A stretch of 64,000 bases of DNA from the NCBI GenBank assembly GCA_030611085.1, contig JAUWQI010000004.1:1731-65730 (forward strand), read 5' to 3'. The notes under the pieces were generated by a model that had not been told where the DNA came from, made no database searches, and was given only the letters and a program-made list of their open reading frames with translations. Below, piece after piece: positions 7,953-12,244 of the stretch. Source of the stretch: Dehalococcoidia bacterium. GTDB lineage: Bacteria; Chloroflexota; Dehalococcoidia; GIF9; AB-539-J10. Numbering within the stretch: position 1 is the first letter of the stretch; each line of letters begins with the position of its first letter. Position numbers and translations under genes: made by a program.

Positions 7953-8606
7953 ATGACTACAAATAGGGAAGTTTTCGACCAGATAGCTGAGAGCTGGTAT
8001 CGAGTGAGACATTGGCCCCGGCTAAGGGAAGAGCTTGAAGTGCTAGCACAAAAATGGCAGGGAGGAAAGCTGCTAAATGTGGGCTGTGCCCATGGCCCTG
8101 ACTTTCTACCTTTTAAGCAAGGCTTTGAACTCTGGGGCGTGGATTCTTCCCCAGCTATGCTCAAACAAGCTCTGAGATATTCAGCCAAATTCCAGTTCCA
8201 GGTTAAATTGGTGGTAGCTGATGCGCTCTCGTTACCCTTTCCAAATGATTCCTTTGACTGGGCAATATCAGTGGCCGCTTATCATCACATCAAGGGAAAG
8301 GATGAAAGGGAAAGGGTATTTATGGAGTTAAAACGGGTGTTAAAGCCTGGCGGCGAGGCTTTCTTAACTGTGTGGAATTATAGGCAGCCTAGGTTCTGGC
8401 TAAAATCGAAAGACCAGGAGGTGCCCTGGAGGCTGAGGGGAAAGACTGTTTATCGCTATTACCACCTTTTCTCTTATGGTGAGCTTAAAAAGCTTTTGAC
8501 CAAAGCTGGTTTGGAAATCATTACGATGTCAGCGGAGAAATCCTACCACTTCCCCATAAAGAACTTCTCCCACAATATATGCGCTCTGGTGAAGAAACGT
8601 CGCTAA
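7953..8606 (+). CDS. class I SAM-dependent methyltransferase, Trm9-like
   Basis: LNVGCAHGPD (motif I). ISVAAYHHIKGKDERERVFMELKRVLKPGGEAFLTVWNYRQ resembles the Trm9/ALKBH8 methyltransferase core. Start chosen at MTTNREVFDQ. Confidence 0.7.
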   Translation: MTTNREVFDQIAESWYRVRHWPRLREELEVLAQKWQGGKLLNVGCAHGPDFLPFKQGFELWGVDSSPAMLKQALRYSAKFQFQVKLVVADALSLPFPNDSFDWAISVAAYHHIKGKDERERVFMELKRVLKPGGEAFLTVWNYRQPRFWLKSKDQEVPWRLRGKTVYRYYHLFSYGELKKLLTKAGLEIITMSAEKSYHFPIKNFSHNICALVKKRR

Positions 8607-8643
8607 GTAGGCTAGCCTTTCATTATGTCGCTGTGTCTCCTCC

Positions 8644-8703
8644 CTGTCATTGCGGCGAGCCGAAGGCGTGGCAGTCAGCGAAGGGGAAGCGTGGCGATCT
8701 CTC
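8644..8703. repeat. Family-B repeat unit (forward), left flank of GIY-YIG gene
   Basis: ctgtcattgcggcgagccgaaggcgtggcagtcagcgaaggggaagcgtggcgatctc. It closely matches the sequence inserted in hisC (60880-60925). Confidence 0.8.
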
Positions 8704-8989
8704 ATAATTCCTCATACAGGTCACGCAATTCTTTATTCATACCATTAACTAATTCAATCTTCTTTTGCCTCGAGCCAGCCTTAATCTGCTTCTCCCGCCA
8801 GATGGCATTTTCTATGTCCTCAAAGACCTCATAATATATCAACTTTGTAACGTTGTATTTTCTAGTAAATCCGCTAGCTAGTTTTCCTTTATGCTCATAG
8901 GCCCTTCTTTTTAAGTCATTAGTGGCGCTAGTATAAAGCACAGTGTTCCTGCTGTTAGTCATTATATAGACATCGTATTGCTTATCCAT
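8702..8989 (-). CDS. GIY-YIG nuclease family protein (small, COG2827-like)
   Basis: MDKQYDVYIMTNSRNTVLYTSATNDLKRRAYEHK...REKQIKAGSRQKK carries the GIY/YIG, Arg and Glu motifs. The upstream ORF extension (MSLRGTKCRSNL) is a translated repeat. Confidence 0.8.
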   Translation of the reverse strand: MDKQYDVYIMTNSRNTVLYTSATNDLKRRAYEHKGKLASGFTRKYNVTKLIYYEVFEDIENAIWREKQIKAGSRQKKIELVNGMNKELRDLYEEL

Positions 8990-9004
8990 AGTTATATTTT
9001 GCGA

Positions 9005-9043
9005 GAGATTGCTTCGGCACTTTGTGCCTCGCAATGACAAAGG
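9005..9043. repeat. Family-B repeat unit (inverted), right flank of GIY-YIG gene
   Basis: The reverse complement reads cctttgtcattgcgaggcacaaagtgccgaagcaatctc. Confidence 0.8.
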
Positions 9044-9112
9044 GGAGAATACCTTCGCCAGGCAAAGAAGAGAGCCTTCCCCATGATAAGAAGCAATTTA
9101 GCAGGAAGCTAG

Positions 9113-12100
9113 TCATACCTGTGGGTTTGGTTGCTCGCTAGGTGGGTCTTGTCCTATCTTCACTTTCTTGGCAAAGCCATCCTCGACAAGACCAATAAAG
9201 ACCTCCACCAACTCAGGGTCGAATTGTGTGCCCGCACCCTGCCTGAGCTCTTTCATCACTTTCTCTTCACAGAGGGCATTGCGGTAAGGGCGTTTAGAAG
9301 TCATGGCAGAAAAAGCGTCAGCTATAGCTAGAATGCGAGCTTCTATGGGGATATTTTTACCCTTGAGCCCTTCAGGATAGCCAGTGCCATCCCATCTCTC
9401 ATGGTGGTGTAAAATGCCACCGAGGCAAGTAACCAGGTCAGGCATATTACCAACGATATTCGCACCCAGTCTAGGATGAGCTTTAATTGCCTCCCAATCT
9501 TCAGGGCTAAGCTCCCCCTTTTTACTCAGTACCTTATCAGAGACGCCAATCTTGCCAATATCGTGAAGCAAGGCGGCAGTGCTCACTCTGGATACATCAT
9601 CGGGCGATAAGCCAATGGTCTCAGCCAGAGCCACAGCATAGGTATTCACTTTTCTAGAATGGCCGTAGGTGTAGGGGTCTTTGGCATCCACTGTTGCGGC
9701 TAAAGCGTAAACGGCGGATAAACCAGCACCCCTGGCAAAAGTTCCAGTCTCTGTTGCTGGCTCAGACAAAATTTTAGAGGAAAGATAAACCCGATTGCCA
9801 CCAGTGTGTTTGGCATAATAAAGTGCGGTATCGGCCGTGGTAACAAGCTCATCGGATATCACCCCATCTGAGGGATAGCTAGCCAAACCAATGCTACAAG
9901 TCACGGCAATATTCTTTGCCTCCATTTCGACAGCAATCTGCGCTCGAACTCGCTCAGCCACGACGTAGGCATCATCTATAGTCGTGTGAGGCAAAATGGC
10001 AATGAACTCATCACCGCCATATCTGAAAGCCTGGTCGGCACCTCGGATAGAGTTCTTGATAATTCTCCCTACTTGGTTCAAGAGCTTGTCGCCGGAAGGA
10101 TGTCCATATATATCGTTGTAGGTCTTAAAGCTATCGAGGTCAAACAAGAATAAGGAAAATACATTACCATGTCTGGAGTGCCGGGCAAGCTCATCTTTGA
10201 GCCTTTCCTCAAAATGGCGACGATTAAATAAGCCGGTAAGCTCATCAATGCGACTTCTCTGCTCTGCCCTGGAATAAAGCAGGGAATTCTCAATGGGCGT
10301 AGCAATCTGCCAAGCTAGTTGTTCCAGAAGGCGTATTTGTTTTTGGCTATAGGCATTGGGTTGGTGACTGGCTATGATTAAACTGCCGATGGCAGTATCC
10401 TTCACAACCAATGGCAGATGAGTGATAGAGCAAATTCCTTCCTCAACATAATGCCCTGCAGTCCAAAATCTGCTAAGTTGTTTTAGATCAGCTTCATATA
10501 AACTTTTCTTATGCTCAACTACCCATTCAGTAGTCGTCCCTTTAAGTGGCACTCTTTCTCCCATGTGACGCACTGAACTTACTTGGCTAGATAGAGCCAA
10601 GATATGAAGCTGGTCCTCTTCAACTAAAGCAATTGTGGCATAATCGAGGGGAATAACTTCCTTTAGCGCATCAGTAAAGCCCTCAAATATCTCTTGGATG
10701 CTAACGCTGGAAGTTATAATTGAGGTCAACTTGTTTATAAGGATTAATTCTTTATCATGGGCTCGCAATTGTTCATGGAAATATTCCTTCTCCATGCTTG
10801 CTGCCACACGGCTGGCAACAGACTCCAGTAAATCAATATCCTCAACGGTGTAAAGTTTCCCATTTCGCTTATCACCTACTGCCAAAATAGCCACAAGTTC
10901 ACCCCTATTTATTAGAGGAATAAACATCTCTACTTTAGCTGATTGAATGTTTTCCTTTTCTTGTTGCCATATAGATTGGAATTCAGGAAAGATGCTGATA
11001 TTCCTTTCCGGCAATATGGTATTTTCTCGCTTCAGCCACTCCACAACAGGGCTATCGTGCCTCGATTTCAGATTTAACATGGGATTACCTTCTGCAGGAG
11101 GGTAGGTAAAGCGGACGGCGAAATCTCCGCTTCCGCCTTCTGGCAAAAGCAAACAAGCTCCACGGCAATCAATAGATTGAGAAAGTAAAGAAATGAGTCC
11201 GCTGCCAAACTGCTTCAGATTAGGAATGCTGCGTATTTGGGTGATAAAGCTAGCTAATTGTTTGCGATAACTATATTTCTCCCCAATAAAAGCTTGTTCT
11301 ATCTTCCTCTGCCAAGCTTTATCCACTATATGAATAGAAAATGCAATAACCGGGATTCCTACGCACAAAGCTACCGCTAGTGTAGTTCGGTCAATTTCAA
11401 AGTTAAACACCAGGTGGATGAGGAAAAGAAGGAGAACGAAAAGAGCAGTGCCAGCGCCATAACTGCCTAGCAGCTTCAGCCCACGGCGCAAAACGACGTG
11501 GGCATCCACCAGGTGATGTGCTACAACAGCATAGGTTAGGATACAGGCCACGATGAGATTGCCGATATGGGCTATGGGGTATCCCCCTCCGTAGGGAACA
11601 ATGGAGCTGGGGATAAAGATTGCTAGGATGGCAATAGCACCAAGTAAATAAGAAATCTGATTATGCTCTACCGGGTCAGGTGAAATCTTACGCCTTCGCA
11701 GCAAAAAATATATATCCTGGACACCTACGATGAATAGGAAAAGAAAACCTATAACAATAATCCAGATACCATAGTCAACATTGATGCCACTGGCGGTAAT
11801 TTCAACACCCCGCGGGATATAGCCCAACAGTGCCAGTGCAATGGCGCTTACTAAGAAAATATATGCCAGTGGTATCTTGATGCGTGCGGACCGATAAAAA
11901 GGATAGATAAAGTAATGGAGTTGGATTAGCATCCAGATGAGAAGGCAGAGAACAATTGCAACTTCAAATAGTTTATCCACCATTAACAAATTGCTGCGAC
12001 TTATGAAGTCGCAGAGGCTCCAGAAGGTTGCTGAAATCAGGAATAAGAAGAAAAACTTTTGCTTCCTACCCCATGGGCGGTTAGCCAGCAAAATAACAAA

Positions 12101-12154
12101 TAGGGGGATATAAGCGATGGCGGCAATTAAAGGAATTAAAGCATGAATATTCAT
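9113..12154 (-). CDS. membrane sensor with GAF domains, GGDEF diguanylate cyclase and HD-GYP phosphodiesterase domains
   Basis: 1013 aa. About 8 N-terminal TM helices. RYGGDEFIAIL (GGDEF). HDIGKIGV...HHERWDGTGYPEGL (HD-GYP). Confidence 0.85.
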   Translation of the reverse strand: MNIHALIPLIAAIAYIPLFVILLANRPWGRKQKFFFLFLISATFWSLCDFISRSNLLMVDKLFEVAIVLCLLIWMLIQLHYFIYPFYRSARIKIPLAYIFLVSAIALALLGYIPRGVEITASGINVDYGIWIIVIGFLFLFIVGVQDIYFLLRRRKISPDPVEHNQISYLLGAIAILAIFIPSSIVPYGGGYPIAHIGNLIVACILTYAVVAHHLVDAHVVLRRGLKLLGSYGAGTALFVLLLFLIHLVFNFEIDRTTLAVALCVGIPVIAFSIHIVDKAWQRKIEQAFIGEKYSYRKQLASFITQIRSIPNLKQFGSGLISLLSQSIDCRGACLLLPEGGSGDFAVRFTYPPAEGNPMLNLKSRHDSPVVEWLKRENTILPERNISIFPEFQSIWQQEKENIQSAKVEMFIPLINRGELVAILAVGDKRNGKLYTVEDIDLLESVASRVAASMEKEYFHEQLRAHDKELILINKLTSIITSSVSIQEIFEGFTDALKEVIPLDYATIALVEEDQLHILALSSQVSSVRHMGERVPLKGTTTEWVVEHKKSLYEADLKQLSRFWTAGHYVEEGICSITHLPLVVKDTAIGSLIIASHQPNAYSQKQIRLLEQLAWQIATPIENSLLYSRAEQRSRIDELTGLFNRRHFEERLKDELARHSRHGNVFSLFLFDLDSFKTYNDIYGHPSGDKLLNQVGRIIKNSIRGADQAFRYGGDEFIAILPHTTIDDAYVVAERVRAQIAVEMEAKNIAVTCSIGLASYPSDGVISDELVTTADTALYYAKHTGGNRVYLSSKILSEPATETGTFARGAGLSAVYALAATVDAKDPYTYGHSRKVNTYAVALAETIGLSPDDVSRVSTAALLHDIGKIGVSDKVLSKKGELSPEDWEAIKAHPRLGANIVGNMPDLVTCLGGILHHHERWDGTGYPEGLKGKNIPIEARILAIADAFSAMTSKRPYRNALCEEKVMKELRQGAGTQFDPELVEVFIGLVEDGFAKKVKIGQDPPSEQPNPQV

Positions 12155-12187: not shown

Positions 12188-12244
12188 GTCATTCTGAGCC
12201 GCAGGCGAAGAATCTCTGAGACCCTTCGCTTCGTTCAGGGTGAC
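12188..12244. repeat. Family-B palindromic element (unit + inverted unit)
   Basis: gtcattctgagccgcaggcgaagaatctc tgag acccttcgcttcgttcagggtgac. Confidence 0.85.

Follow-up and report, generated by a model that had tools for sequence, protein, structure and literature searches.

A probable SRM–ssn–SRM cassette, comprising a minimal GIY-YIG nuclease gene and two inverted hairpin repeats, in a Dehalococcoidia genome

We have analysed a 64,000-nucleotide stretch of DNA (the window; C17:1731-65730 of a 1.16-Mb assembly in 30 contigs that is 83% complete) from an uncultured Dehalococcoidia bacterium, in which a small GIY-YIG nuclease gene, here called ssn, lies between two inverted copies of a short hairpin repeat. 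The gene occupies positions 8702-8989 on the minus strand and encodes a 95-aa single-domain protein, whose sole Pfam match is GIY-YIG (PF01541, E 9e-14, residues 7-77). Upstream of the gene, on its right, is a hairpin unit at 9005-9039 on the minus strand (TGTCATTGCGAGGCACAAAGTGCCGAAGCAATCTC), which reads forward on the ssn sense strand and folds as DNA into a hairpin of -7.4 kcal/mol (z -2.7); the same variant recurs exactly at C25:65228 and exactly or nearly so in the related genome G007. Downstream, on the left, is a unit at 8645-8701 on the plus strand, starting TGTCATTGCG and ending GCGATCTC, a 57-nt compound and degenerate form with a T.G pair in its outer stem; a similar compound form is found at C7:1140-1193. 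Both units have the stem class ATTGC and are of the type named "Ssn-related motifs" (SRM). Their CTC ends point toward the gene and their TGTCA tags outward, and together with ssn they make up a core cassette of 395 bp (8645-9039). The original prediction for this locus had described a 96-aa GIY-YIG gene with a forward unit on the left, overlapping the stop codon, and an inverted unit on the right, with the CTC ends facing inward. The gene is real, albeit one residue shorter, and the right unit and the polarity are essentially as described; the left unit is present too, but it borders directly on the stop codon (8702-8704), and there is an overlap only when a trailing TC is included. We conclude, with a probability of about 80%, that the locus is an SRM–ssn–SRM cassette, that is, an Ssn-family minimal GIY-YIG nuclease gene with two inverted ATTGC-class hairpin repeats, and that it represents a selfish, horizontally moving, and decaying module.

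The reference for this comparison is SsnA of Neisseria meningitidis, a 94-aa single-domain GIY-YIG protein (CDD cd10448, GIY-YIG_unchar_3) that binds the hairpin repeat NTS (CGTCATTCCCGCGMAVGCGGGAATCYRG) solely as single-stranded DNA (ssDNA), in the form of its forward strand, with the cut falling a few nucleotides upstream (Chenal et al. 2025, Nat Commun 16:2388, PMC11893778). Cutting is abolished by the mutations Y6A, Y17A, and E64A. The cytosine that directly follows the palindrome is most important for binding and the three bases ahead of the palindrome for cleavage, and changing the sequence of the stem while keeping the hairpin destroys activity (PMC11893778). Thousands of Ssn homologues occur across phyla, 42% of them with SRM on both flanks, and 29% are reported to lack any SRM in their flanks (PMC11893778). 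The view, also part of the original prediction, that small GIY-YIG proteins have no established function is therefore outdated, as Ssn proteins are site-specific ssDNA endonucleases acting on hairpin repeats (PMC11893778). The pairing of gene and repeat was likewise already published in 2025, and our locus mainly adds a member.

The protein and its surroundings agree with the Ssn/NTS system in several respects. In size (~94-95 aa) and single-domain composition the proteins match, and Y8, Y19, and E66 of the window protein are spaced as the essential Y6, Y17, and E64 of SsnA; R29, H33, and N85 are kept as well. The ssn gene is in both cases enclosed by inverted hairpin repeats, a (C/T)GTCAT tag immediately precedes the stem (in agreement with the HGTC tag of SRM), a C immediately follows it, and repeat copies are dispersed by the hundreds, chiefly between genes. 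There are also differences: the stem here is ATTGC (and elsewhere in the genome ATTCT or ACCCT), the interior is of the GAGCGAAGCGA type rather than ATTCCCGCG, the window protein falls in a separate clade with K[AG]GSRxKK in place of KKW[NR]RxWK, and the host is a Dehalococcoidia bacterium with a small genome, neither symbiont nor pathogen. The relationship to the proteins that accompany NTS was examined through metagenome contigs, which were scanned for inverted NTS cores (GTCATTCCCGCG, 325-355 nt, CGCGGGAATGAC) at a spacing that suits a 94-aa gene. In 120 such stretches, selected by these cores alone, a gene for a window-protein homologue (36-56% identity, E 1e-10 to 4e-29) is present in 100, and in 99 of the 100 it is positioned between the cores.

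Structural comparison points to the same minimal architecture. The AlphaFold model of the 95-aa product is a confident GIY-YIG fold (mean predicted local distance difference test score, pLDDT, 94.8), consisting of a single compact GIY-YIG domain with no second domain, and the nearest solved folds are BH0048 (UPF0213) and the nuclease domain of Slx1. A sequence search of the PDB with the window protein returns only BH0048, and that weakly (E 1.4e-3). Among database homologues, those nearest to it come from Dehalococcoidia. A single small GIY-YIG gene is present in the genome, plus one long GIY-YIG open reading frame (ORF) of 644 aa, presumably UvrC.

The association of gene and repeats recurs far beyond this locus. 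Within the genome, units on both sides with their CTC ends inward are seen at 3 of 1114 crude genes (~0.3%), by a filter that missed ssn itself. Forty related genomes contain 13 close homologues (E < 1e-15) and five distant GIY-YIG genes (E > 1e-6); in 11-12 of the 13, a forward unit precedes the start codon by 10-40 nt and an inverted unit sits at the stop codon or a few bases from it, and none of the five distant genes has flanking units. We also retrieved, with an 8-sequence alignment, 80 homologue loci from named genomes of at least 15 phyla. These cover, among others, Chloroflexota, Cyanobacteriota, Planctomycetota, Nitrospirota, Bacteroidota, Ignavibacteriota, Pseudomonadota, Bacillota, Elusimicrobiota, Omnitrophota, and several Patescibacteria. 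In a generic hairpin test, inward GTC-tagged hairpins are present on both sides in 45 of the 80, against 14-24% per side in control regions 700 nt away, and the stem class is ATTGC at 58 of the 85 loci that could be scored when the relatives' loci are added. Because a layout shown by ~0.3% of genes recurs at most homologues, with matching stem class, the ssn gene and the hairpin units belong together, and chance is not the explanation. Flankless GIY-YIG paralogues, which had been named beforehand as counter-evidence, are not the picture that emerged, as homologues elsewhere carry the flanks. Gene and repeat number are also related: across 41 genomes, an ATTGC-lineage ssn occurs in nine relatives, each of which contains 22 or more ATTGC units, and it is missing from all 15 genomes in which the units number less than 20; the Mann-Whitney p for ssn versus ATTGC-unit number is 2e-4, uncorrected for phylogeny.

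The flanking units are part of a large repeat family. A strict pattern, which runs from GTCA through a 4-nt stem and a loop to the stem's exact complement and TCT, finds 222 units in the genome versus 3-8 with scrambled tags. After removal of nested duplicates there are ~226 units, and scans restricted to one class at a time give outer stems ATTCT for 126, ATTGC for 42, ACCCT for 41, and ACTCT for 8. All classes share the consensus T-GTC-A-stem ... stem-T-CTC, in which a 5-bp outer stem surrounds a GA-bracketed inner mini-hairpin (typically GA-GC-GAA-GC-GA or an extended version of it) and a CTC tail follows. Compensatory changes separate the stem classes, and 178 of 205 scored stems are perfect. 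The units are depleted within genes (35% lie inside ORFs, in a genome that is 86% coding), their copies are diverse, and a literal literature search for the unit sequences matched only unrelated primers.

Units also occur as gene-less doublets, of which 48 are tail-to-tail, two head-to-head, and one tandem. The example cited in the original prediction, at 12188-12244, is indeed a unit, a short spacer, and an inverted unit: a forward ATTCT unit, 1 nt after its CTC, and an inverted ACCCT unit. The 48 tail-to-tail doublets are mostly ATTCT+ACCCT (30), ATTCT+ATTCT (9), or ATTCT+ACTCT (6), and ATTGC units are mostly solo (36 of 42). The proposal that such palindromic copies are this locus minus its gene thus holds for the polarity, which is shared, but not for descent; because their stem classes mostly differ from that of the flanking ATTGC units, the doublets are not deletion derivatives of the resident cassette. 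The doublet at 12188-12244 can also fold, through two T.G pairs, as a single long hairpin (-13.1 kcal/mol, z -3.1). In this and 29 other ATTCT+ACCCT doublets, the long hairpin can form through T.G pairs on one strand and has C.A mismatches on the other, so that strand asymmetry is built in and a perfect long palindrome is avoided.

Nuclease and hairpin vary together. When both sets of proteins are placed in one tree, 78 of the 82 with NTS flanks fall in a single clade (support 0.80), which holds none of 59 ATTGC-flanked proteins; the two sets were chosen differently, one by protein similarity and the other by flank. The most discriminating alignment columns are 71-73 and 76, with 11-12 and 16-17 contributing as well, and residues 71-76 read K[AG]GSRxKK with ATTGC hairpins and KKW[NR]RxWK with NTS hairpins. 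Among nine homologues with other stems (ATTCT, ATCCT, ATTCC, or ACCCC), most have W or Y at position 72, and one (L123) has L. Some genomes hold two ssn lineages, each with its own stem class. Residues 71-76 are thus a candidate determinant of hairpin specificity, to judge from this co-variation. The resident nuclease has AGS at 71-73 and belongs to the lineage paired with ATTGC units. W72-type nucleases are found in genomes of the same family (G011, G020), and none is found in our 83%-complete assembly. Several contigs start at units, and because of this little weight attaches to the failure to find a repeat-flanked gene in such an assembly.

Comparison of neighbourhoods bears on how the cassette came to its present position. 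It sits between a gene for a class I S-adenosylmethionine (SAM)-dependent methyltransferase (7956-8606, plus strand) and a convergent gene for a GAF-GGDEF-HD-GYP protein (9113-12154, minus strand). The methyltransferase locus was compared in 19 relatives, of which 17 have the two genes side by side and convergent, with spacers from ~20-35 nt (G012, G030, G028) up to ~200 nt; in none of the relatives does ssn lie there, and this genome alone has it at that place. The lineage of this genome thus gained the cassette by insertion between two convergent genes whose arrangement is conserved. Elsewhere, the ssn cassette of G007 and G015 adjoins the orthologue of C17:3050-3730, a site that is free of units here; ssn of G027 lies between two genes that, judged from sequence, are his-like and are 6 nt apart in this genome; and the ssn site of G020 has a solo ATTGC unit here. 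The insertion polymorphism among relatives that the original prediction had proposed to look for therefore exists, at three orthologous sites. When cassettes from different contexts are aligned, similarity starts at TGTCA and stops at TGACA. The median span of a cassette is 384 bp in the ATTGC class and 360 bp in the NTS class. Phyla are intermingled in the protein tree, where for instance Daviesbacteria group with Gammaproteobacteria and Heliobacteriaceae with Melainabacteria, and the hairpin class stays constant while the nuclease tree crosses phylum boundaries. These comparisons support the view of a cassette that is inserted, and has spread horizontally, as a unit. For individual units, 400 kb of the same-genus genome G001 (84% DNA identity) was compared, and this yielded cases of presence and absence with no clean junctions, because the intergenic spacers are too diverged at that identity.

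Several results weigh against assigning the locus to the Ssn family as a mobile, repeat-bound module. First, the published SRM pattern (HGTCWYN(0-2)YYVSBRHN(0-5)WNVSBRGN(0-2)RNCYNB) matches none of the ~230 units; it has two matches in the genome versus 0-6 in ten shuffles. We take this as a limit of the pattern, which is a search device and not a definition, rather than of family membership. Second, the link to SsnA and its family (cd10448) is indirect, made via the proteins between canonical NTS cores, and an NCBIfam search returns no model that matches the window protein. Third, direct repeats of 2-5 nt at the ends of 29 ATTGC-class and 87 NTS-class cassettes are at about chance level, giving no target-site duplication, and no target motif appears at cassette ends beyond a pyrimidine before GTC. 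Fourth, no ssn is detectable in 17 relatives that contain 20-127 ATTGC units, among them genomes of 98-99% completeness, and ~80% of the units in this genome are of stem classes not associated with the resident nuclease lineage. Finally, the resident copy departs from its family. The window protein carries Y6D, G21S, V22A, and W88L, the second of which alters the G of the Y-x-G (YIG) motif, although Y6, G21, and W88 are conserved in 97%, 98%, and 99% of the 120 closest homologues (and G21 and W88 in 98% and 80% of 150 representatives). The left unit folds poorly (z +2.3). Because of Y6D, G21S, and W88L together with this degenerate downstream unit, the resident ssn copy may be inactive.

How such a cassette might act can be sketched from its relatives. 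By analogy with Ssn proteins, from which its biochemical activity is extrapolated, the window protein would bind the folded hairpin only in ssDNA and in one orientation, and would nick a few bases 5' of the GTC tag. With this geometry, each strand would present a cleavable hairpin at the 5' edge of the cassette. Because the flanking units are inverted, both predicted cuts would coincide with the outer boundaries of the cassette, and likewise for tail-to-tail doublets. The ~230 units of the genome are SRM-type repeats of several stem classes, of which the ATTGC class (~42) alone fits the resident nuclease lineage. It is plausible that the nuclease itself drives insertion of cassettes or gene-less units.

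Several explanations for the origin and role of such a system can be considered. The first, which we hold only tentatively and at less than even odds, is that the cassette is a mobile element able to move by itself, from which the units derive as non-autonomous forms. The Ssn nuclease would then be the mobilising enzyme, and nicks 5' of hairpins on ssDNA would start a process of copying or homing, often into existing hairpins, in a manner like that proposed for RAYT and REPINs. The gene-less doublets have the same polarity as the cassette, and cassettes cease to resemble each other at the TGTCA tags, which is where the family cuts. Insertion polymorphism at three orthologous sites, a nuclease tree that crosses phyla, the coexistence of two ssn lineages with their own stem classes in some genomes, and the nesting of units within units (described below) all agree with mobility, and Chenal et al. 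also raised this hypothesis (PMC11893778), likening the NTS–ssnA–NTS layout to an insertion sequence (IS) and to REP/RAYT. On the other hand, a hydrolytic GIY-YIG nuclease has no known strand-joining activity, and a single cleavable hairpin per strand leaves simple single-strand excision unexplained. The missing target-site duplication and target motif, the abundance of units in genomes without ssn, the occurrence of the doublets here in classes other than that of the resident cassette, and the diversity of unit copies, with no sign of a recent burst, also speak against it. A more specific form, that SRM–ssn–SRM cassettes of ~360-400 bp are true autonomous elements whose sole protein is the 95-aa hydrolytic GIY-YIG nuclease, is in our judgement rather doubtful. 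Such elements would insert without target duplication via ssDNA, possibly homing into hairpins, would be the source of gene-less hairpins and doublets, and would be matched, lineage to stem class, by residues 71-76 (G versus W/Y at 72). If this were true, the present genome would hold a single ATTGC-type element in decay, along with two large repeat classes orphaned by the loss of a W72-type element.

The main alternative is a domesticated host function, in which the nuclease uses the dispersed hairpins to restrict or modulate incoming or exposed ssDNA (in transformation, conjugation, infection by ssDNA phages, or replication gaps), and the repeats spread by other means. It has a direct precedent in the Neisseria SsnA, which reduces transformation by NTS-containing DNA (PMC11893778), and it would agree with the single copy of ssn in this genome and the depletion of units inside genes. 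We nevertheless consider it unlikely, as ssn is patchily distributed even inside one family of genomes, lies at differing loci in differing genera with a phylogeny that crosses phyla, and is a pseudogene in several homologues, and the resident copy is substituted at near-invariant positions. The last explanation, that abundant intergenic repeats, such as stabilisers or terminators acting at the RNA level, simply happen to occupy both spacers of a small gene, is very improbable: units do occupy many intergenic spacers, and a housekeeping remA-like gene (C13:8671-8940, identified by eye), one of the 3 of 1114 genes counted above, likewise has inward-facing units on both sides, so that coincidences do happen, but the rarity of the layout among genes contrasts with its recurrence across phyla, and an RNA-level role is at odds with the absence of a T-run terminator signature from the units, their no more than slight tendency to share the orientation of adjacent genes (61 same, 44 opposite), G.T versus A.C stem mismatches (8 versus 12) that show no bias toward one transcribed strand, and an Rfam search at the gathering threshold that gives no family for them.

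The SRM–ssn–SRM cassette has parallels in several known systems beyond Ssn/NTS. One is with the REPtrons, formed by REP/REPIN repeats and RAYT (Nunvar 2010; Bertels & Rainey 2011; Ton-Hoang 2012). Here, as there, a single-copy nuclease gene stands between inverted short hairpin repeats, the repeat is present hundreds of times, often as inverted doublets, and repeats persist where the gene is lacking; recognition of folded single-stranded DNA would be a further shared feature, if the window protein acts like its Ssn relatives. REPtrons differ in having an HUH/Y1 tyrosine transposase of the IS200/IS605 superfamily, which forms a covalent intermediate and rejoins strands, in contrast to the hydrolytic GIY-YIG nuclease, and a GTAG tag in place of TGTC, although the inverted flanking layout is shared. 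A second parallel is with the CGTC-tagged REPs (Di Nocera, De Gregorio & Rocco 2013, PMC3733652), which include Neisseria dRS3 and Rickettsia RPE-4 and RPE-6 and for which no associated transposase has been reported (PMC3733652). These also have a C/TGTC tag at one end, A-T pairs that open the stem, and a short unpaired tail (here with stems ATTCT, ATTGC, and ACCCT and a CTC tail), and heterodimers of units with differing stems are frequent in them as well. In their four families, however, stems measure 8-9 bp and loops 4-5 nt, and the tail is CCA, as opposed to the 5-bp outer stem, GA-bracketed inner mini-hairpin, and CTC tail found here, and Chloroflexota is not in the five phyla listed (PMC3733652).

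Other types of element can be compared as well. Elements with an HUH transposase and subterminal hairpins are likewise very small, have their hairpins recognised as ssDNA, and make no target-site duplication. Our cassette, in contrast, has no HUH transposase, its left and right ends are not distinct but consist of a single hairpin in inverted copies, and no conserved target tetranucleotide was found. A classical IS or MITE (a miniature transposable element with inverted repeats) differs in that there is no target duplication at the ends of the cassette. GIY-YIG homing endonucleases (I-TevI and the Seg proteins) have a separate, tethered DNA-binding domain and cut double-stranded DNA at the intron-less or gene-less allele, whereas the window protein is a single domain of 95 aa.

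Three results go beyond the published work (PMC11893778): its search pattern for the repeats is too narrow, the hairpin class is mirrored in nuclease residues 71-76, and the cassettes come and go as whole units. The ATTGC, ATTCT, and ACCCT hairpin classes are invisible to the published SRM pattern, and the first of them flanks an ssn clade in at least 15 phyla. Because the pattern misses whole hairpin classes, some of the 29% of Ssn homologues reported as SRM-less may have cognate repeats. Residues 71-76 offer a concrete specificity candidate in a family that has been proposed as a toolbox of programmable ssDNA cutters. Finally, orthologous sites with and without the cassette show that it is gained and lost whole, within the bounds of the predicted cut sites, which bears on whether a hydrolytic GIY-YIG nuclease can drive a repeat system like that of REP and RAYT.

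A number of smaller observations concern the cassette and its gene. The inverted repeat at the ends of the cassette can be extended to 19 nt with 84% complementarity (8636-8654 and 9030-9048), which gives a whole cassette at 8636-9048 (TCTCCYCCYTGTCATTGCG). We rejected this terminal extension as a general feature, as other ATTGC units have no conserved 5' leader. At 8622-8650 on the minus strand, the tag of the left unit (ATGACA) and a CATAAT 17 nt on form a sigma-70-like site (10 of 12 matches) directed out of the cassette and antisense to the methyltransferase gene; a -35-like TGACA is present at the outer end of every unit. On the other side, the spacer between the upstream unit and the ATG (8990-9004, minus strand; 13-15 nt) reads gcaaaatataact on the gene strand. 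In the spacer of homologues there is a TATAAT-like box 7-12 nt ahead of the start codon, a position that may indicate a leaderless transcript, and a scan for consensus promoters upstream of the resident ssn found none.

The reading frame itself extends beyond the gene. A TTG-started ORF of 112 aa (8702-9040, MSLRGTKCRSNL...) runs through the upstream hairpin unit. Many database entries of the family (e.g. P0004, P0007, P0045, and P0055; 119-169 aa) are annotated 25-75 residues too long, because gene callers carry the ORF through the upstream hairpin unit. Some homologues are pseudogenes that retain their hairpin flanks: L066 has an in-frame TAG (SR*KK) and L068 an in-frame TAA (VY*E), the copy in G039 (C2:460739-460976) is split over two frames, and one in G007 (C4:187484-187699) lacks its N-terminus. 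Two distant GIY-YIG genes, L015 (G018) 348-590 and L020 (G010) 1501-1710, share 28-36% identity with the window protein, lack TGTC hairpins, and adjoin tRNA-like 3' ends (ggttcgaatcc...).

The methyltransferase/GGDEF spacer (8607-9112 in the window) is occupied by a different small cassette in three relatives, L024 (G001), L025 (G007), and L030 (G015), at ~2150-2670 of each locus. This cassette contains a gene for a 123-aa 23S-rRNA-intervening-sequence protein (PF05635, E 3e-20) and is bounded by AT-rich repeats ('aaatcctaaa / ttttgcatttt') with TGACA/TGTCA ends. Because three relatives carry it at the same spot, the spacer looks like a hotspot for small selfish-looking cassettes.

Nested or stacked units are seen in L013 (G020) at ~1480-1535 and in this genome at C3:17191-17237, C12:831-878, and C15:58700-58750. 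In one example, a GTCATCCTGAAC...CAGGAT unit lies within the loop of a GTCATTCCGAAC...CGGAATCTC unit, and some truncated units have a complete one directly after them. This arrangement hints that hairpin loops, or the tags themselves, may be insertion sites. A cluster of three units (C18:20489-20587), ~150 nt long, is present here and absent in G001 (L048); it directly adjoins the start codon of a gene, whose ATG region apparently occurs twice, once on either side of the insert.

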